Source: Defluviitaleaceae bacterium
GTDB taxonomy: Bacteria > Bacillota > Clostridia > Lachnospirales > WRAX01
Length of the DNA: 64,000 bases
Direction of reading: 5' to 3'
NCBI GenBank assembly: GCA_009784615.1
Contig: WRBJ01000006.1
Span: 5,760 to 69,759, forward strand
The translations under genes were made by a program, and so were the position numbers. Shown here in pieces: positions 12,330 through 54,730 of the stretch; the first letter of the stretch is position 1, and every line of letters begins with the position of its first letter. The notes below the pieces were generated by a model, which searched no databases, had not been told where the DNA came from, and worked only from the letters and a program-made list of their open reading frames with translations.

Positions 12330-14261
12330 ATGAATGAAAGAATTTCAGAGCTTGTTAATATTTTGAACAAAGCGTCGTCGGCTTATGAAGCAGGAAGTCC
12401 GATAATTATAGATTTAGAATATGATGCGCTATATGACGAACTTTTAGGTTTGGAAGCCAAAACAGGCATTGTTTTAGATAATTCTCCAACACAAAAAGTA
12501 GGGCACGAAGTGGTGTCGTCATTAGAAAAAGTGCGGCACAGCGCACCTTTGCTATCTCTTGATAAAACAAAGGATGTTGCGAAATTGCAGAGCTTTTTAT
12601 CATTAGGGCAGGGGATTTTGTCTTGGAAGCTGGACGGGCTTACGATTGTTTTAAAATACGCCGATGGAAAGCTGGTTCAAGCTCTTACACGTGGTAATGG
12701 CGAAATTGGTGAGGATGTAACGCATAACGGGCGTTTTTTTCGTAATGTTCCTAAAAAAATTGATTATAAAGGTGAATTGAGCATACGTGGTGAAGCCGTA
12801 ATTGGCTTTGCCGAATTTGAGCGGATTAATGGCGAAATTGACGGCGAAAAATATAAAAATCCACGCAATTTGTGCGCAGGAACGATAAGGCAGCTTAACA
12901 GCCGAATATCCGCAAGCCGTAATGTAGATTTTTTTGCTTTCGCTGTGCTTGCAAGTGATTTGGAATATGCAAAAAAAACTGAACAATTAGAATTTTTGTC
13001 AGGTCTTGGCTTTGCTGTAGCCGAGCATAAATTGGTAGCCGAAAATAATGTAGATGAAGCGGTTAATGCTTTTAAACACGCTGTCGAAGGACTAAATTAT
13101 GCCACCGATGGGCTTGTGCTAACCTATGATGATATTGAATTTAGCGAAAGTTTGGGTGCAACATCGAAATTCCCAAAAGATTCCATAGCGTTCAAATGGG
13201 CAGATGAAATGGCGCAAACACGTCTTATTGACGTGCTTTGGAACACATCTCGCACGGGCTTAATTAATCCTATAGCTATTTTTAAAAATGTAGAAATAGA
13301 AGGAACGAATGTAGAACGTGCCAGCCTTCATAATTTATCCATTGTAGAAAGTTTGGAGCTAGGCATTGACGACGAAATATCGGTCTATAAAGCAAATATG
13401 ATTATACCGCAAATTGCAGAAAATTTCACACGTAGCGGTGGCATTAAGCCGCCCGAAAACTGCCCAGTATGCAACGCCCAAACCCATATTAAAGACGAAA
13501 ATGGTGTAAAAACACTGCATTGTACCAACCCAAATTGCAAAGCACGTGTTGTACGTACAATAGTGCATTATATAAGCCGTGATGCGGCAAATATCGACGG
13601 CTTTTCAATACAAACTGTGGAAAAATTCCTTGAACTAGGATTTTTAGAAAATTTCAGCGACATTTACAAAATTGGTGAATATGAGGAGCAAATTACAAAC
13701 TTGCGAGGTTTCGGCGAAAAATCTTTTGCCAATCTGATTGCCGCAATCGAAAAATCAAAAGATATCGCATTGCCTAACTTTATTTATGGTTTAGGTATTG
13801 ATAATGTTGGATTATCAGGCGCAAAGGCATTATGCCGCAATTTTAGCAACGATTTTAATGCGATAAGAAACGCCGAACCACCAGAATTTGCCGCAATTGA
13901 TGGCTTTGGCGATATAATAGCCGCAAGTATTTACGAATATTTTCAAAACCCCGAAAACAACCGCATTGTAGACATCGCTTTGGCTAATTTGCGCATTACA
14001 AAAACTGATGTTGCCGAGCATCGACAAAATACCGCAATCGCAGGTAAAACCTTTGTTATAACAGGTGATTTGCAACATTTTAAAAACCGCAAAGAATTAA
14101 CAGACCATATAGAAGCCGCAGGCGGCAAGGTTGCAGGCTCGGTATCCAAAAAAACAGACTATCTTATCAATAACGACACAACATCTACATCATCAAAAAA
14201 CAAGAAAGCAGAAGAACTGGGCGTAAAAATTATTAACGAACAGGATTTTCTGCAATTGTAG
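12330..14261 (+). CDS. ligA: NAD-dependent DNA ligase
   Basis: KLDG adenylation motif, TRGNG, NPRN, Zn finger, C-terminal BRCT (GSVSKKTDYLI); real start ATG 12330 after RBS gggagg. Confidence 0.97.
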   Translation: MNERISELVNILNKASSAYEAGSPIIIDLEYDALYDELLGLEAKTGIVLDNSPTQKVGHEVVSSLEKVRHSAPLLSLDKTKDVAKLQSFLSLGQGILSWKLDGLTIVLKYADGKLVQALTRGNGEIGEDVTHNGRFFRNVPKKIDYKGELSIRGEAVIGFAEFERINGEIDGEKYKNPRNLCAGTIRQLNSRISASRNVDFFAFAVLASDLEYAKKTEQLEFLSGLGFAVAEHKLVAENNVDEAVNAFKHAVEGLNYATDGLVLTYDDIEFSESLGATSKFPKDSIAFKWADEMAQTRLIDVLWNTSRTGLINPIAIFKNVEIEGTNVERASLHNLSIVESLELGIDDEISVYKANMIIPQIAENFTRSGGIKPPENCPVCNAQTHIKDENGVKTLHCTNPNCKARVVRTIVHYISRDAANIDGFSIQTVEKFLELGFLENFSDIYKIGEYEEQITNLRGFGEKSFANLIAAIEKSKDIALPNFIYGLGIDNVGLSGAKALCRNFSNDFNAIRNAEPPEFAAIDGFGDIIAASIYEYFQNPENNRIVDIALANLRITKTDVAEHRQNTAIAGKTFVITGDLQHFKNRKELTDHIEAAGGKVAGSVSKKTDYLINNDTTSTSSKNKKAEELGVKIINEQDFLQL

Positions 14262-48850: not shown

Positions 48851-49930
48851 TTGTTTAAGCGTTTTGTATATGTTTTTGTGGTTGTTTTTTGTATTTTTAT
48901 TATTGTTGGTGTGGATGATATTTTTGCCCATCAACCTGCTATTGGCGAGCCTATTGGCGTTGTGTTGCATACGGATATTAGAGTTTTTATTGATGCAATA
49001 GAGATTGAAGGGTTTAATATAAACGACTACACATATGTTGTGGCGGAAGATTTGGTAGCTTTTGGTATGGATGTGGCGTGGGATGGCGATACTTCATCGC
49101 TGTATATAGTCCGTGGTAGCTTTAATACCGAACCACCCAAGGTTGACGCAAATCAAAACCACCCAGGTAGTTTTGCGTTTTTCTTTGTTCATACTGAAAT
49201 TGTAACATATATTGACGGCAATTTGGTGCAAAGTTTTAATGTGGATGGCCGCACGGTTGTACGTGTTGATGATTTGGCGGCGGCTTTTGGTAATGTTTTT
49301 TGGGACGAGCGCAACAGGCTTGTTTTGCTACATTTAGAGCCTTTACCGCAGTCGGAAGAAACTGTGCAATTTGTAACGAGTCAATTTATGGTATTTAACG
49401 AAGGTAATCGACACGGCATTGTTAATTTGGTGGGTGATGTTATTGTGCCTGCGGTTTATAGTCAAAATGAAATTCGTATGCTTTATAATTTGACAAAACT
49501 AGATATGCCGATGCAAATTGCGCTTGGTGATTGGTTTGGAGATTTGCGTGAAAGTTTGCCACGCCACATCCCGCTTCGTATTATTGATATTTTAACAGGC
49601 ATTGAATATAATGTGGCAAGTTTTTCAAACGGTAATCACGCTGATGTAGAGCCGGTGACAGCTAATGATACCGAGCTAATGTTTGCAACACAACCCGCTT
49701 CGTGGACGGGTCGTCCTGTTATTGTGGTTTTTGACGACCGTGCATATGTTGCGGCGATACATACGATGCCGCACGATGTGGTGCATATTAGGGATAATAA
49801 TTTGGATGGGCATATTTGCTTGCATTTTAACGGAAGTACGCAACATATAAGCCCTAATGCGGTTTATGCAAGAGAGATTAATCAGGCATACGAGGTTGCG
49901 CAAAAATTTTTACGATATTTTGGAAAATAA
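48851..49930 (+). CDS. Secreted protein: stalk-like N-terminal domains and a C-terminal His/Cys (L,D-transpeptidase-like) domain
   Basis: Signal peptide; TDI..FI...I..FNI...YV..EDL repeats; NHADVEP, HTMPH, GHICLHF. Confidence 0.7.
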   Translation: MFKRFVYVFVVVFCIFIIVGVDDIFAHQPAIGEPIGVVLHTDIRVFIDAIEIEGFNINDYTYVVAEDLVAFGMDVAWDGDTSSLYIVRGSFNTEPPKVDANQNHPGSFAFFFVHTEIVTYIDGNLVQSFNVDGRTVVRVDDLAAAFGNVFWDERNRLVLLHLEPLPQSEETVQFVTSQFMVFNEGNRHGIVNLVGDVIVPAVYSQNEIRMLYNLTKLDMPMQIALGDWFGDLRESLPRHIPLRIIDILTGIEYNVASFSNGNHADVEPVTANDTELMFATQPASWTGRPVIVVFDDRAYVAAIHTMPHDVVHIRDNNLDGHICLHFNGSTQHISPNAVYAREINQAYEVAQKFLRYFGK

Positions 49931-49933
49931 ATG

Positions 49934-49962
49934 TTGACAAGATTACTAGGAAATGATATAAT
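49934..49962 (+). promoter_or_regulatory. Consensus sigmaA promoter with extended -10
   Basis: TTGACA-17bp-(TG)TATAAT. Confidence 0.8.
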
Positions 49963-49978
49963 GCGTCTTAAGTTAATA

Positions 49979-50066
49979 TCACCTAACACCAAGACTGGTT
50001 TTCTCTCAAGGTGAAAGGCGCAAAATATTTTTTGAAATTAATGCGCCTTAGGGTGCATTTTATTTT
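49979..50066 (+). ncRNA. Riboswitch-like leader (LOOT motif candidate) with terminator/antiterminator
   Basis: P1 tcacct/aggtga enclosing acca-agac-tggt and ctctca; aaggcgca pairs with tgcgcctt, which alternatively forms aatgcgcc-ttag-ggtgcatt followed by ttatttt. Confidence 0.6.
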
Positions 50067-50082
50067 GGAAAGGGTGAATTAT

Positions 50083-50328
50083 ATGGGAAATAGGGTTGCG
50101 GTTATTGCGATTATTATTGAAGATATTGAAAAGGCCGCCGCCGTAAACATATGTTTGCACGAATATGCAGATAATATTATAGGGAGAATGGGATTGCCTT
50201 ATAAACAAAAGAAAATGAACATCATCAGCGTTGTGGTTGACGCGCCGCACGACACGATTTCTGCATTGTCTGGCAAGATTGGGCGCATTGAAGGTGTTAG
50301 TGCGAAAACATTATATTCTAAAAATTAG
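50083..50328 (+). CDS. TM1266 family putative regulator (ACT/NikR-C-like)
   Basis: RVAVIAIIIED, LHEY...IIGRMGLPY, ISALSGKIG.I.GV.AK; start ATG 50083. Confidence 0.88.
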   Translation: MGNRVAVIAIIIEDIEKAAAVNICLHEYADNIIGRMGLPYKQKKMNIISVVVDAPHDTISALSGKIGRIEGVSAKTLYSKN

Positions 50329-50340
50329 GAGGAAAAACGT

Positions 50341-51372
50341 ATGAAAAAGAAATTATTATTGATTTTGGCAGTGGTTTTTGCTTTGGTTGTGATGGCGGCG
50401 TGTAATAACAGAACAGAGCCGACCATAACAACGCCGTCTACAACACCTTCAACAGAGGTTGATATAACGGCAGATGATACCGAACTTGTTGGTGGTGAAG
50501 TTAATATTGCGACATTGCGTGGTCCGTCGGGGCTTAGTATGTTGTTATTGATGGATACTGATACTCAAAACGATTATAATGTGATGCTGATGGGTGCACC
50601 TACTGAAATTCCGCCGCTTTTGGTGCGTGGTGACATTGATATTGCGGCGGTGCCTACTAATCTTGCTTCAAATTTGTATAATACTATGGATGGAAATATT
50701 GTAGTGCTTGCGGCTACGACACTTGGTGTTTTGCATATTGTAGACACAACGGGTACAATTAATAGTGTTGAAGATTTGCGTGGGCAAACTATTTATGCCA
50801 GTGGTGGCGGTGGTATGCCAGAGTTTATTCTTAACTACATCCTTGAAGGCAATGGATTAACACCAGGTGTTGATGTTATTATAGAATTTAGAACAGAGCA
50901 CACCGAAATTGCGGGTTTGATTGATACAGGTATTGCCCAAATAGCAATGTTGCCAGAGCCTTTTGCTACAACAACCGTTAATCGTGTTGATGGTTTAGAA
51001 TACGCGCTTGATTTAACAGAAGAATGGAACAAAATCTCACCTGACGCTGGTTTGATTATGACAACCGTTATTGCCCGTCGTGAATTTGTAGAGCAAAACC
51101 CTGATTTGGTTGAAATTTTTATGATGGAACTTGAAAGCAGTGTTAATTTTACTAATAATAGCGTTGAACAAGCGGCAGAGCTTGCCGTAACATACGACAT
51201 CATTCCCGCCGCACCTGTGGCACGTTTAGCAATACCGCGCTCTAATATTGTGTTTATAACAGGCGGACAATTTGAAACTTATGTTACCAATATTTTGGAA
51301 GTGTTTTATAACCACAACCCGGTTTCCATAGGGGGTCAAATGCCTAATGCGGATTTTTTCTTTAATAATTAA
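50341..51372 (+). CDS. ABC transporter substrate-binding lipoprotein (NitT/TauT/SsuA-like)
   Basis: Lipobox MAAC; L.GPSGL, G.IDIA.VP.N.A..LYN, LPEPF. Confidence 0.88.
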   Translation: MKKKLLLILAVVFALVVMAACNNRTEPTITTPSTTPSTEVDITADDTELVGGEVNIATLRGPSGLSMLLLMDTDTQNDYNVMLMGAPTEIPPLLVRGDIDIAAVPTNLASNLYNTMDGNIVVLAATTLGVLHIVDTTGTINSVEDLRGQTIYASGGGGMPEFILNYILEGNGLTPGVDVIIEFRTEHTEIAGLIDTGIAQIAMLPEPFATTTVNRVDGLEYALDLTEEWNKISPDAGLIMTTVIARREFVEQNPDLVEIFMMELESSVNFTNNSVEQAAELAVTYDIIPAAPVARLAIPRSNIVFITGGQFETYVTNILEVFYNHNPVSIGGQMPNADFFFNN

Positions 51373-52093
51373 AAAAATAGTTGTTGCCGCCTTTTGGTTT
51401 ATTGTGTGGGATATAGCGGCACGCATTGTAGGTAGCAGTATAATATTGGTTGGGCCTGTCGAAACCTTCGGCAGGCTTTTTGCCCTTACGGGTACAACGG
51501 CTTTTTGGAGCAGGATAAATTATTCGCTATTACGCATTATGCTTGGTTTTGTACTGTCTTTGGGTGTTGGTGTTTTGCTTGCCGTGGCTTGCCATAATTC
51601 AAAAATTATACGTGATTTAATTACACCGCTTATAAATGTAATAAAGTCTATACCTGTTGTATCCTTTGCCCTTTTGGCAATTTTTTGGATTTCGAGGGAT
51701 TATATGTCCGTTTTTATCGCATTTGTAACGGTTTTGCCCATTGTGTTTTTTAATACGCAAAAGGGCATTGAAAATACCGACGAAAAACTAATTGAAATGG
51801 CAGATGTTTTTCGAGTGGGCATTTTTAAAAAAATAAAACATATTTATGTGCCGCTGGTTATGCCTTTTGTTATTTCGGCGGCGGCAAGTGGCCTAGGTTT
51901 TGCGTGGAAGGCAGGTATTGCGGCAGAAGTTATTGGTTTTAGCAGAAGCTCTATTGGCGGAGGTTTGCACGAAGCAAGAAACTTTTTGCTTACGGCAGAT
52001 TTGTTGGCTTGGACAATTGCGATTGTTGTTTTGGCTTGGGCAATGGAGAAGGTTATATTCTTTCTTTTCGGGAGGTTTAAAAAATGGCAATAG
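51347..52093 (+). CDS. ABC transporter permease (NitT/TauT family)
   Basis: SL.RI..GF, KSIPVVS, D.KL.EMA.VF, WKAGIAAE. Confidence 0.9.
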   Translation: MRIFSLIIKKIVVAAFWFIVWDIAARIVGSSIILVGPVETFGRLFALTGTTAFWSRINYSLLRIMLGFVLSLGVGVLLAVACHNSKIIRDLITPLINVIKSIPVVSFALLAIFWISRDYMSVFIAFVTVLPIVFFNTQKGIENTDEKLIEMADVFRVGIFKKIKHIYVPLVMPFVISAAASGLGFAWKAGIAAEVIGFSRSSIGGGLHEARNFLLTADLLAWTIAIVVLAWAMEKVIFFLFGRFKKWQ

Positions 52094-52656
52094 AAATAAA
52101 AAATATCTCGAAAAGTTTTGGTAGCAAAGTTGTGCTTGCAGATTTTAGTTTAGTGTTGGAGCAAGGCATTACTTGTATTATGGGTGCTTCAGGCAAGGGC
52201 AAAACTACATTAATCAACATACTTGCGAGGTTGGTTTCTGCTGATAGTGGCGAAATCGTTATGCCTGCTGGCGCAAAAATATCATTTGTTTTTCAAGAGG
52301 ATAGACTGTTGCAATGGGACACGGCGATACAAAATGTGCTTTTTCCGATGAAGCGTCCGAAGGATTTTATAAAAAATGCGACAGAATTATTGATACAGTC
52401 GGGCTTGGAAGAAGCTATTAACAAAAAAGCCGACGAATTATCGGGTGGTATGAAACGGCGTGTTGCAATTTGCCGTGCGCTGATTGCCGAACACGATGTG
52501 TTGATTATGGACGAGCCTTTTAAAGGTCTTGATGATGAACTAAAACCAAGAATTATGGATATGATAAAAAACCATAGCGTAGATAAAATTGTGCTTTGCA
52601 TAACTCACGATAAGACCGAAGCGAGCTACCTTGGCGGTAAATTGGTGCAAATGTAG
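52084..52656 (+). CDS. ABC transporter ATP-binding protein
   Basis: GASGKGKTT, FQEDRL, LSGGMKRR, MDEPF, ITHD. Confidence 0.93.
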   Translation: MAIEIKNISKSFGSKVVLADFSLVLEQGITCIMGASGKGKTTLINILARLVSADSGEIVMPAGAKISFVFQEDRLLQWDTAIQNVLFPMKRPKDFIKNATELLIQSGLEEAINKKADELSGGMKRRVAICRALIAEHDVLIMDEPFKGLDDELKPRIMDMIKNHSVDKIVLCITHDKTEASYLGGKLVQM

Positions 52657-53467
52657 CTTACTATTGCCACAAAATTTAGTGGCATATTTGCTGATAGATA
52701 TACCGACTAATATACGCAAACGCAAATTGTCGCTGGCGGCGATAAAGCTGCAAAGCGAAGATGTAAAAATAATCGACCTTGCCGTAATGTATGGATATGA
52801 CAGCGCAGATGGTTTTGCCCGTGCTTTTGCAAAGCAACACGGCATTGTACCTTCTGTTGCTCGTCAAGCGGGTATTAATTTGACTATTTTTCCTCCTCTT
52901 AATTTCCAAATCAAAATAAAGGGAGCGATAGCTATGAATTGGAGAATTGAGGAGAAAGACGCTTTTAAGGTCTTTGGGATTGAGCGGATTTTTAGCCGTG
53001 AAGATTTAAGTAATGGAAATGTGCCAAGGTTTTGGGCAGAGAGCGAAAAAAATGGTGGTTTAGAAAAATTGTATGATGATGCTGGTGGTATACGCAATGC
53101 GGATGGTAGTCCGAAATATAGCGATACTACTGAAACAATGTGCATTGTTAATTCGGTTTGTGACTACAAAGAGCTTGAAGGTGGCAATTTTGCATATATG
53201 ATTTGTGCTTTTGCAAACCCAAATAGCAAAACAGATGGTTATGAGATTGTGCAAATACCAAAAACGACTTGGGCAGTTTTTCGCAGTGAAAAATTTAGCC
53301 TAGACCATATAGGTCAAGAAATACCTAAATTGTTTAATAGGGCGTATAGCGAATGGTTGCCAACATCTGGATATGACAGGGATAACAGGGCAAATGTTCC
53401 GTATATGGAGATATATTATCGTGCCAAAAATGGGGATTTTTTGAAGAAGTTTGGATTCCTGTGGTAA
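52631..53467 (+). pseudogene. 5'-truncated AraC regulator with a GyrI-like effector domain; 3' frameshift
   Basis: Only the second HTH half is present (IRKRKLSLAA...YGYDSADGFARAF...HG..PS); the expected C-terminal EEVWIPV is out of frame after T6 at 53437-53442; internal ATG 52934 has its own RBS. Confidence 0.7.
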
Positions 53468-53481
53468 AAAATAAGGTCTAT

Positions 53482-53516
53482 AATTTAAAAGACGGCGCAT
53501 TGCCGTCTTTTAAATT
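53482..53516. terminator. Bidirectional intrinsic terminator
   Basis: aatttaaaagacggc-gcatt-gccgtcttttaaatt between convergent genes. Confidence 0.85.
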
Positions 53517-53590
53517 ATTTTGAGGACATTTTAATTTTCAAAATAAGTCTATAGTGTTTTTGAAAAAATAGAAAAACCTTTAGTATGATT

Positions 53591-54730
53591 CTACGGCAGT
53601 ATTACCATTGGTGTTGAAATTTCATTGCGTTCGGGTATATTTTTATGTTTTAGCGCAAGCCAATACATCTGCGTAGCGTTAATTTCATTTACAAGGGTAT
53701 TTTTGGCGTGTTTTGTATTGGTGATTATGGGTAATGCCGCATTTTTGTACATTTGCGTAATTAGATGAGATTTACTGCGTTTAAAACCCAAAACACGTAA
53801 ATAACGCACTTTTTCTTGTTTTTCGTGGTTCAAAAAAATATTTAACGCCGCACGTTTTAACGCCGTATATGTGATATTTTTTGTTTTAACAGCAGAAACT
53901 ATATCACTAATGTAATAATGTTCTTGCGCTGCTACATCAAAAATTGTTTTGTGCTTTTGCGTTTTTATTATATAGTGAAAAAAAGCACTAAAATTATCTA
54001 CATTATTAACAGCCGACTGCAAATATTCTTCCGACAAAATTTCGTAAGAAGATGACGGCATATAGTCTGCAAGCTCTGAAATATTGCCTGACAAAATTTG
54101 CCCACGAATTGCACTTGCCGATGCATATGGCGGACGCATTTGCTTATCGTGATGATTAACGCCAATACGTGCGATGGCGTGTGGCGTAATAGCGGAATTA
54201 AGCCGTAACAACGCCTTTAAATATTCTATGGCGAGGATGTTGTTTGGCGTGCGTAAAATTTCTGTGGTATTGGGCAAAATAGCAGAAACAGCGGTGGCTC
54301 TAGCTTTTGGAAAGCTATTGCCTTTTGCAAGCTCATCACGCAAAATTGCTTTAAATTTGGGCGTTTCATTAACAAGCAACTTGGCAATGGGCAGCAAAAG
54401 CGATAAATCTGTATTTTCAGCACCAAAACAAATATCAGTGACAATACCGCTTGCTACAAGAATTTCAACACCTGCTTGTGCAAAACCTTCTGCGCTGGAT
54501 GTTGCAAATTCCACAGGTAGCTCAAGCACAAGGTCTGCCCCGTTTAGCAACGCCTGTTTTGTACGGGCAAATTTGTCAATAATTGCAGGCTCGCCGCGTT
54601 GCACAAAGTTCCCACTTAACACCACAACAACATTATCTGCCCCGATTTTTTTACGTGTAATATCTAATTGAAATTTATGACCATTATGAAAAGGGTTATA
54701 TTCGGCAATTATACCGCAAATTTTCTTCAT
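53591..54730 (-). CDS. tmcAL: tRNA(Met) cytidine acetate ligase (HIGH nucleotidyltransferase family)
   Basis: GIIAEYNPFHNGH, SGNFVQRGEPA, GADLVLELP, PNNILAIEY, SASAIR; start ATG 54730. Confidence 0.92.
   Translation of the reverse strand: MKKICGIIAEYNPFHNGHKFQLDITRKKIGADNVVVVLSGNFVQRGEPAIIDKFARTKQALLNGADLVLELPVEFATSSAEGFAQAGVEILVASGIVTDICFGAENTDLSLLLPIAKLLVNETPKFKAILRDELAKGNSFPKARATAVSAILPNTTEILRTPNNILAIEYLKALLRLNSAITPHAIARIGVNHHDKQMRPPYASASAIRGQILSGNISELADYMPSSSYEILSEEYLQSAVNNVDNFSAFFHYIIKTQKHKTIFDVAAQEHYYISDIVSAVKTKNITYTALKRAALNIFLNHEKQEKVRYLRVLGFKRSKSHLITQMYKNAALPIITNTKHAKNTLVNEINATQMYWLALKHKNIPERNEISTPMVILP

Follow-up and report, generated by a model that had tools for sequence, protein, structure and literature searches.

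A two-fold pseudo-symmetric hairpin RNA upstream of a TM1266 and ABC importer operon and its apparent place in an [FeFe]-hydrogenase-maturation regulon

The leader of a TM1266 and ABC importer operon in the window, the 64,000-nt stretch of Defluviitaleaceae DNA analyzed here, is, judged by covariation among homologous loci, a real and widely conserved cis-regulatory RNA. Its core is a two-fold pseudo-symmetric hairpin at 49982..50018 on the + strand, which would act as an anti-antiterminator. By its gene neighborhoods the motif belongs to an [FeFe]-hydrogenase-maturation regulon, because the same RNA stands before hydE-hydG in this genome and before hydG, hydE or aspA elsewhere, and by its matches in other genomes it is carried by a large share of hydrogen-producing Clostridia. 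We favor, at about even odds, a reading in which a dimeric TM1266 protein binds the hairpin as its operator and acts as an attenuation protein.

Little is known, to our knowledge, of how cells control the assembly of the [FeFe]-hydrogenase H-cluster, a costly process, and we know of no function assigned to the conserved TM1266 protein since its structure was solved. Since 2006 the annotation of TM1266-family proteins has gone no further than "putative regulators" of iron-only hydrogenase systems. The circuit presented here is concrete and testable, consisting of a 40-nt RNA and an 81-aa protein, with a termination read-out near 50060.

The leader hairpin and its expression platform

The promoter, leader hairpin, antiterminator/terminator pair and genes for a TM1266-like protein, binding protein, permease and ATPase, in the order given by the initial annotation, were all located in the sequence. 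The sigma-70-type promoter (49934..49962, + strand) has a -35 box TTGACA at 49934-49939, a 17-nt spacer with an extended TG, and a -10 box TATAAT at 49957-49962. It is the sole 12/12 site among 24 promoter-like sites found in 49500-53800, where shuffled sequence gives a mean of 14.5, and its spacing indicates that transcription should start at about 49969-49971. The fold of 49960-50090 reaches -34 kcal/mol (z -2.76), which was equalled by 1 of 200 shuffles. One helix of the MFE fold, 49962-49969/50015-22, was rejected, because it sits at or upstream of the inferred start of transcription and shows no conservation. A leader peptide and a T-box were likewise dropped, since neither a matching ORF nor a specifier structure is present in the leader, which also lacks an Rfam match.

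The conserved motif is a hairpin of 33–60 nt with strong covariation, built from three 3–4-bp helices with two 2x2 purine loops between them. In the window, on the + strand, these are P1 (49982-84/50016-18), the outer purine loop (49985-86/50014-15), P1a (49987-90/50010-13), the inner purine loop (49991-92/50008-09), and P2 (49993-95/50005-07), which holds a C.C mismatch, with the hairpin loop at 49996-50004; P1, P1a and P2 are each supported by homologues. Both strands read 5'-YCU-RA-N4-RA-AGR-3', and their per-position profiles are nearly identical, as would be the case at a binding site for a symmetric dimer. The motif covariance model matches the window leader at 49978-50022 with 32.6 bits (E 5e-5). 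A reading of the internal loops as K-turns was dropped, since in one locus it would break a perfect 6-bp P2.

This register differs from the one drawn in the initial annotation, whose letters tcacct..aggtga lie at 49979-50014. A structured hairpin is indeed present, but the pairings UCACCU/AGGUGA and ACCA/UGGU proposed for it, while able to form, are not conserved. Only the conserved register overlaps the antiterminator, whereas the hairpin drawn previously fits the terminator or the antiterminator equally, at -19.0 kcal/mol in both cases.

The covariation was assessed in instances from a comparative set of about 130 fetched loci, for which related loci were sought with a single protein as the query. 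Among 20 seed instances, some of which were selected by a pattern that itself requires pairing, 92.8% of cells are paired, against 68.5% in shuffles (0/500 as high) and 34–55% when partners were slid. In the 53 instances of an alignment fitted to the model, the corresponding values are 93.2 and 67.2%, and double-change cells number 153, compared with 45.7. Pair 10-63, which is absent from the search model, is nonetheless a standard pair in 43 of the 53 instances and occurs as six pair types. The motif has ∼22 conserved positions. The motif models are short and can misfire, one 34.9-bit match lying inside a 671-aa ORF; seven in-ORF matches were counted as false positives and one further match was left unclassified. 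Conservation and covariation upstream of homologous operons, on which the initial annotation had in part let its proposal stand or fall, were both seen.

Downstream of the hairpin lie two competing structures on the + strand. In the antiterminator helix (50015..50049), 50015-50022 pairs with 50042-50049, and the intrinsic terminator (50040..50066) has an 8-bp stem (50040-47/50052-59), a UUAG loop and a U-rich tail at 50060-66. The 3' strand of P1 (50016-18) falls within the 5' arm of the antiterminator (50015-22). The terminator and antiterminator are isoenergetic, at a computed -11.2 kcal/mol each, and the conserved hairpin by itself is weak in the window (-6.8 kcal/mol), which together suggest that an effector is needed. 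A closed hairpin would keep its 3' strand (AAAGG) from the 5' arm of the terminator, so that the terminator at 50040-50066 could form and the operon of TM1266, binding protein, permease and ATPase would be off; with the hairpin open, the antiterminator 50015-22/50042-49 would form and allow read-through.

The same arrangement is seen across the instances. In 37 of the 53, the 3' part of the motif shows complementarity of 6 nt or more to a terminator 5' arm, compared with 22.6 with shuffled tails (maximum 30 in 200 shuffles); complementarity of 8 nt or more is found in 16, compared with 4.1. In 8 of the 53 the 3' strand of the motif lies 4–12 nt before an ATG, as or beside the Shine-Dalgarno sequence (SD), and in these genomes the same OFF logic would operate on translation. 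As the 3' strand of the hairpin doubles as an antiterminator arm or a ribosome-binding site, a stabilized hairpin would be the OFF state. The initial proposal that the leader is a structured and conserved cis-regulatory element, able to switch between terminator and antiterminator ahead of the TM1266 gene and an ABC importer, was borne out.

These counts also bear on the idea that the hairpin has a different reader or no reader at all, whether as the site of another RNA-binding protein, as an RNase or stability element, or as a passive, leaky terminator leader. Stem-loops at the 5' end can stabilize mRNA, and in the window and four other loci the hairpin stands at the extreme 5' end of the transcript; the present evidence, moreover, does not itself identify the effector. 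A stability element, however, has no need of a 3' strand that is complementary to the terminator arm or serves as an SD, and the close ties to a single pathway and to TM1266 point to a dedicated effector, making this explanation improbable.

The initial annotation had also suggested for the leader a place in the LOOT RNA family (RF03000), an orphan cis-regulatory candidate in Clostridia, as is the leader itself. The sole, loose overlap is that both are said to neighbor sulfonate-type ABC transporters. The best RF03000 match in the genome has 12.3 bits (E 7.6) against a gathering threshold of 46.4 and lies away from the leader, at 19234-19330 of contig C6 (13475-13571 of the window), while 49880-50140 holds no RF03000 match at E ≤ 10. 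The family model also spans 121 positions, compared with 33–60 nt for the motif and ∼40 for the leader, and membership in LOOT has next to no probability. More widely, the Rfam 15 families gave no match in 49880-50140 at E ≤ 10 or in 15 homologous loci at E ≤ 1, and in the whole window only THF and tRNA-Sec passed the Rfam gathering thresholds, both away from the leader. A description of the hairpin RNA was not found in the literature searches, and the word "hydrogenase" is absent from the main text of a review of orphan riboswitches (PMC7266159) and of a 2026 preprint (10.64898/2026.10.21.760802); a listing in their supplements or in the 2017 motif catalogue is possible. Within Rfam and the literature searched, then, the hairpin RNA is uncatalogued.

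Downstream genes and distribution of the motif

The operon lies on the + strand. Its first gene (50083-50328) encodes an 81-aa, small ACT/NikR-C-like protein of the TM1266 family (PF21699 E 4.8e-32, 110.2 bits, cut-off 27; TIGR03959 111.5 bits, cut-off 60.8). The second (50341-51372) encodes a lipoprotein-type substrate-binding protein that narrowly passes the NMT1 model PF09084 at 23.6 bits (cut-off 20.5) and matches the SsuA-family model TIGR01728 at 47.7 bits, under its cut-off of 163.5, and whose nearest solved chain is 3HN0, a "nitrate transport protein" (E 4e-10). On these matches the binding protein is a distant NMT1/SsuA-like relative, and because the relation is distant its substrate cannot be inferred from the SsuA family; nor does 3HN0 allow such an inference. 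An ABC permease of NitT/TauT-like type (51347-52093; PF00528 E 2.2e-15) follows, whose best NCBIfam matches (SaoP, SsuC, NtrB, and TauC) are all under their cut-offs, and then a short ABC ATPase (52084-52656; PF00005 E 3.9e-24) of 190 aa, compared with 199–232 aa in related operons. One metatranscriptome run, from an RNA library with possible DNA content, contains contigs identical to 50537-50711 and 52513-52719, which are uninformative on transcript starts, ends and termination. The window derives from an uncultured organism, and the runs in which it is found carry the label termite gut metagenome.

The genome itself carries a second copy of the motif, at 28365-28411 of contig C19, which precedes HydE (TIGR03956, E 2e-157) and HydG. 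In other Clostridia the motif precedes TM1266, hydG (four loci), hydE (one locus), aspA (two loci), SsuA-like importers, and, in one genome, a NifH-like gene. The operon was initially seen as a self-contained uptake-and-sensing module, a view that does not agree with the presence of the same RNA before hydE-hydG here and before hydG, hydE, aspA and other genes elsewhere. Whichever way the hairpin is read, this co-regulation points to the SsuA-like importer, and likewise to the NifH-like gene, as unrecognized members of the maturation pathway, something that may be relevant to the engineering of hydrogen production.

There were 22 credible genome-wide matches in 150 other Clostridia genomes; a TM1266 gene immediately follows 12 of them and immediately precedes 1, and copies directly after TM1266 genes were found in six more loci. 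Five copies are far from any TM1266 gene, where they control hydG, aspA or a binding-protein gene, and six loci carry tandem copies. In a sample of 40 TM1266 loci chosen without regard to the motif, 14 have it beside the gene at E ≤ 0.1; the other 26 have no match at this threshold, with divergent variants visible by eye in several. A credible motif is present in 6 of 13 genomes with both HydG and TM1266, in 5 of 17 with TM1266 and no HydG, and in 1 of 13 with HydG and no TM1266, where the contig stops 300 nt past hydG, at the place where a congener carries TM1266. The presence of the motif appears to track TM1266 and not HydG, in counts that are small, from genomes that are related and with matches classed by reading their context. 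The motif was also found in three loci with Treponema record titles, and there are weaker matches (18–23 bits) under Lentisphaeria and uncultured Alphaproteobacteria record titles.

A candidate reader of the hairpin

Two mechanisms had been offered at the outset, a riboswitch and attenuation mediated by the TM1266 protein, and the evidence leans toward the latter. The locus has features of both: a conserved, covarying, structured fold with an expression platform that is mutually exclusive with it, as in riboswitches, and an RNA element whose overlap with the antiterminator is general across instances, as in attenuation.

The TM1266-family protein is the candidate trans-acting reader. Its structural model (pLDDT 96.6) has a beta-alpha-beta-beta-alpha-beta order, an ACT/NikR-C-like fold with no DNA-binding domain, and 2NZC as its closest structure (TM 0.91–0.93, rmsd 1.1–1.4 Å). 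A homodimer was predicted at 0.82, compared with a best value of 0.00 in three controls. Of proteins solved as one-chain pairs, 20 of 30 attained this mark, as did 1 of 23 whose structures are single chains. Agreement between runs covers 97% of contacts or more, with a partner pLDDT of 92 or above, although this pass may reflect memory, as 2NZC (four chains) has already been solved. In the proposed mechanism a TM1266 homodimer, or a tetramer on tandem copies, would hold the hairpin closed, with its ACT-like fold serving to sense a small molecule, and would regulate its own gene together with hydE-hydG, aspA, and the importer, much as PyrR or TRAP does. We infer the binding of TM1266 to RNA, the modulation of this binding by a ligand and the direction of the response. 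Against such a reader, the family is not basic, with net charges of -2 to +2, pI values of 4.85 to 9.16 and only five conserved basic positions among 16 members. The literature searches returned no report of RNA binding by TM1266 or by an ACT-like protein of its family. The TM1266 loci with no motif also count against it, and the copies remote from TM1266 genes suit a riboswitch equally well.

The main alternative, possible though less likely, is that the purine-rich loops directly bind a metabolite or ion linked to H-cluster assembly, protein-free, so that P1 closes and the genes are switched off, TM1266 then being a pathway component that is often encoded first. The covarying fold is aptamer-like in its conserved positions, both terminator and SD types are classic expression platforms, and a regulon that mixes biosynthetic enzymes with an importer is typical of riboswitches; the non-basic character of TM1266 proteins also fits this alternative, as do the tandem copies, which are known in several riboswitch classes. 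The conserved positions, however, are almost perfectly two-fold symmetric, which resembles the site of a dimeric protein and is unusual for a ligand pocket, and in presence and absence the motif appears to follow TM1266 and not HydG. No single end product is obvious as an OFF signal for hydE, hydG, aspA, the SsuA-like importer, and the NifH-like gene together. In four translational copies, moreover, the SD is placed immediately 3' of the helix and not inside it, an arrangement that suits steric occlusion by a bound protein.

With TM1266 as the reader, a new fold would be added to the few known RNA-binding attenuation proteins. Tentatively, and at a little less than even confidence, TM1266 proteins would make up a novel class of attenuation proteins, dimeric, RNA-binding and ligand-sensing, on the ACT/NikR-C fold, recognizing a symmetric GA/AA-loop hairpin and serving a dispersed regulon of hydE/hydG/hydF, the ammonia donor AspA, and the SsuA-like importer, whose cargo would be a hitherto unrecognized input to H-cluster assembly. 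Were the element a riboswitch instead, its ligand would show what the cell monitors during H-cluster synthesis.

Comparison with known regulatory systems

In PyrR attenuation of the Bacillus subtilis pyr operon, a protein-stabilized anti-antiterminator sequesters the 5' strand of the antiterminator so that the terminator forms; the regulator gene is first in the operon, with sites before and after it. The system proposed here shares the anti-antiterminator logic, the leading position of the regulator gene and the sites on both sides of it. TM1266 differs from PyrR in having an ACT/NikR-C-like fold and not that of a phosphoribosyltransferase, in serving another pathway and in a binding that is here only proposed, and the RNA differs in being a two-fold symmetric helix with GA/AA loops.

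The NikR C-terminal domain and ACT domains (2Y3Y, 1Q5Y, and IlvN 5YPP) share the TM1266 fold (Foldseek E ∼2e-5, TM 0.67–0.85) and are oligomeric ligand-sensing modules, as is proposed for TM1266. NikR, however, carries a ribbon-helix-helix domain for DNA binding as well as His/Cys residues that bind Ni; TM1266 proteins have neither, and their alignment contains no conserved His or Cys column.

The trp-leader protein TRAP (PMC3064811) and the hut-leader protein HutP (PMC2425495) are small, oligomeric, ligand-activated binders of leader RNA that choose between terminator and antiterminator. Binding of TRAP blocks formation of the antiterminator, the same logic as that proposed for TM1266, whereas HutP antiterminates and a bound TM1266-leader element should terminate; both proteins read single-stranded triplet repeats, in contrast to the structured symmetric hairpin found here. 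Among riboswitches, the HMP-PP (thiS) class (PMC6478431) is similar in being a very small hairpin coupled directly to an intrinsic terminator, upstream of biosynthesis and transport genes. The leader differs from this class in having no known ligand or Rfam match, in its symmetric core and in traveling with one small protein family.

Promoter, leader and operon

A perfect sigma-70-type promoter lies on the forward strand at 49934-49962 (TTGACA and TATAAT, 17 nt apart with TG), and is the sole site matching at 12 of 12 positions within 49500-53800. Next comes a leader of ~115 nt, which in computation folds better (-34 kcal/mol, z -2.76) than shuffled sequences do. The leader letters quoted in the initial annotation are found in the window, and both of the competing structures that it proposed were detected, namely an intrinsic terminator with an 8-bp stem (50040-47/50052-59) and a U run, and an alternative, antiterminating helix in which 50015-22 pairs with 50042-49. 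The two are isoenergetic, at a computed -11.2 kcal/mol each.

The proposed gene order was likewise confirmed through domain matches: a TM1266-family protein (50083-50328; PF21699, E 4.8e-32; TIGR03959, 111.5 bits), a distant NMT1/SsuA-like binding protein (50341-51372), a permease (51347-52093) and a short ABC ATPase (52084-52656). The ATPase has only 190 aa, compared with 199-232 aa in relatives, and the last 26 nt of its gene are overlapped by a forward-strand regulator gene (52631-53467) encoding an AraC-type HTH and a GyrI-like/Cass2 effector-binding domain. The best or second-best named NCBIfam matches of the permease and ATPase are SaoP and SaoA, far under the cut-offs. Of the eight runs listed, each bearing the label termite gut metagenome, two cover almost all of 49500-53000 and may be where it came from; some contigs of one metatranscriptome run are identical in sequence to segments of the binding-protein gene and to the final part of the ATPase gene.

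The link to LOOT RNA that had been drawn from the sequence did not survive a search with RF03000 (121 positions, gathering threshold 46.4 bits), whose best score anywhere in the genome is 12.3 bits, for window positions 13475-13571; it is exceedingly improbable that the leader is a LOOT RNA. At gathering thresholds, the only Rfam matches in the window are a full-length THF riboswitch aptamer (RF01831; 10743-10838, reverse strand, 80.6 bits) and a selenocysteine tRNA (RF01852; 27491-27581, forward strand, 70.6 bits), neither of which is at the leader. Given the presence of this tRNA, the organism probably makes selenoproteins. The leader matched none of 4227 Rfam families at E ≤ 10, nor did 15 homologous loci produce an Rfam match at E ≤ 1, and the leader RNA was found neither in Rfam 15 nor in the literature searched.

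A conserved hairpin and its OFF logic

TM1266 homologues are carried by 13 of 41 related genomes, and a common motif lies upstream of such genes in relatives although the proteins are only 31-80% identical; it is likewise present among 32 named contigs. In A4, an alignment of 20 motif instances for which part of the seeds were chosen by a pattern demanding pairing, 92.8% of the cells in the proposed helices are paired. The figure is 68.5% for shuffles, none of 500 reaching the observed value, and 34-55% with slid partners; double-change cells number 53 against 17.5. The covariance model R1 led to further instances, the 53 best of which form alignment A6, with 93.2% of cells paired (67.2% in the comparison) and 153 double-change cells (45.7). 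The fourth pair of helix P1a (columns 10-63) is a standard pair in 43 of these 53 (CG 29, GC 5, UA 4, AU 3, GU 1, UG 1), and as it lies outside R1, the model used for searching cannot account for this fit. With a motif common to homologous loci and covariation in both alignments, the earlier suggestion of a structured regulatory leader is upheld.

The conserved fold comprises, in order, P1 (3 bp; 49982-84/50016-18 in the window), a 2x2 purine loop (49985-86/50014-15), P1a (4 bp, covarying freely; 49987-90/50010-13), a second 2x2 purine loop (49991-92/50008-09) and P2 (at least 3 bp; 49993-95/50005-07), closed by a loop that varies from 3 to ~55 nt. This register differs from that of the hairpin drawn initially, which ends at 50014 and allows terminator or antiterminator alike (-19.0 kcal/mol in both); the conserved P1 overlaps the antiterminator. 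Because the column profiles of both strands, each read 5' to 3', are alike (Y, C, U, G>A, A, four helix positions, A>G, A, A, G, R), the conserved core is, judged by sequence, a two-fold pseudo-symmetric duplex. Hairpins also occur in tandem, in two Treponemataceae MAGs (L034 3804-3896; L045 3798-3902) and in several Clostridia (L089, L099, L100, L108), which may reflect cooperative binding or a single tetramer across two hairpins.

Coupling to a terminator, defined as a terminator-like hairpin within 170 nt whose 5' arm shows complementarity of 6 nt or more to the 3' part of the motif, was found in 37 of 53 instances, compared with a mean of 22.6 for shuffled tails (maximum 30 among 200) and 25.0 when tails were permuted among instances; at 8 nt or more, the count was 16 against 4.1. 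Half of the other 16 instances (L005, L022, L024, L066, L073, L074 and the second copies of L043 and L049) place the 3' strand of the motif 4-12 nt ahead of the start codon, where it forms the SD or adjoins it. In both the terminator and SD designs, a stabilised hairpin is OFF, and the leader is very probably a genuine conserved cis-regulatory element of this OFF type. On its own, the window's hairpin is weak (-6.8 kcal/mol), and therefore an effector is needed; a passive element, or some factor other than those weighed below, is an unlikely explanation.

Genes and genomes associated with the motif

The genome of the window holds a second copy of the hairpin (contig C19:28365-28411; locus L052 1501-1547; 22.7 bits), which has a promoter-like site to itself, repeats the antiterminator/terminator design of the leader and precedes HydE (TIGR03956, E 2e-157) and HydG. 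On the opposite strand, ~0.6 kb upstream of this copy, is a second TM1266 paralogue (85 aa), and a 161-aa ORF that belongs to no known family stands between the two. R1 was run over 151 Clostridia genomes (150 others at least 90% complete, and the genome of the window, 86.5% complete) and at E ≤ 0.05 gave matches in 26, with 27 matches outside the latter genome. Classed by context, 22 of these are credible, four fall inside ORFs (L068, L072, L078, L081) and one is unclear (L080). The gene next downstream of the credible matches encodes TM1266 (12), HydG (4), AspA (2), an SsuA-like or lipoprotein binding protein (2), HydE (1) or a NifH-like protein (1). Models of 40 positions are capable of strong false positives, as a 34.9-bit match of the second model, R2, falls inside a 671-aa ORF (L124; G155:C36:99595-99634).

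A link between aspA and hyd operons is already published (PMC11736057). The NifH/CfbC-like ATPase gene (L075, G136:C99; TIGR01287, E 5.6e-95, under the cut-off), which a terminator-bearing motif copy precedes by ~190 nt, is an unexpected regulon member. Among 32 close homologues of the window's TM1266 gene (L019-L050), nine head an ABC operon like that of the window (L019, L020, L030, L032, L043, L044, L046, L049, L050), and most of the others head hydE, hydG or hydF. Three loci of family f48 (L057, L060, L061) have the order [FeFe]-hydrogenase HydA, motif, TM1266 and a 171-aa protein that matches no Pfam or NCBIfam family, and their genomes have no HydG match at E ≤ 1e-60.

In a motif-blind sample of 40 TM1266 loci (the top PF21699 rows), R2 with filters off and E ≤ 0.1 placed the motif beside the gene and on its strand in 14, and 0.4-1.1 kb distant in two more; divergent variants were spotted by eye in several others. 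With R1, copies were also found directly after TM1266 genes (L017, L043, L049, L024, L022, L005). TM1266 is above the cut-off in 100 of the 150 Clostridia genomes and HydG in 97, with 13 genomes having HydG without TM1266 and 17 the reverse, as classed from a reading of tables. Whole-genome R2 searches gave credible matches in 6/13 genomes with both genes vs 1/13 with HydG only, and R1 matches lie beside TM1266 in 5/17 genomes lacking HydG, counts that are small and come from related genomes and two search modes of unequal sensitivity. The sole exception with HydG only (G119) has a contig ending 300 nt after hydG, and a congener carries TM1266 ~1.2 kb past hydG. The presence of the motif thus appears to follow TM1266, not HydG, in these small counts of related genomes.

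Candidate effectors

The TM1266-like protein was modelled at pLDDT 96.6 with a beta-alpha-beta-beta-alpha-beta order, and its best structural match is TM1266 itself (2NZC; TM 0.91-0.93), followed by NikR C-terminal domains and ACT domains. The family alignment shows neither a DNA-binding domain nor any column of conserved His or Cys. A homodimer was predicted with a score of 0.82 (best of three controls, 0.00), a mark attained by 20/30 proteins solved as one-chain pairs and 1/23 solved as single chains, with at least 97% contact agreement between runs and partner pLDDT of at least 92; since the like structure 2NZC has been solved with four chains, this pass may reflect memory of it.

The 16 members considered are not basic (net charge -2 to +2, pI 4.85 to 9.16), which counts against RNA binding by TM1266 and, together with the dispersed motif copies, leaves room for a riboswitch responding to a metabolite or ion, a reading that we regard as possible but somewhat doubtful. 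The symmetry of the RNA, the adjacency of the motif to TM1266, whether before or after the gene, and a presence that tracks TM1266 over HydG favour a protein effector. The chances appear evenly balanced that a TM1266 dimer or tetramer acts on the hairpin in the manner of PyrR or TRAP.
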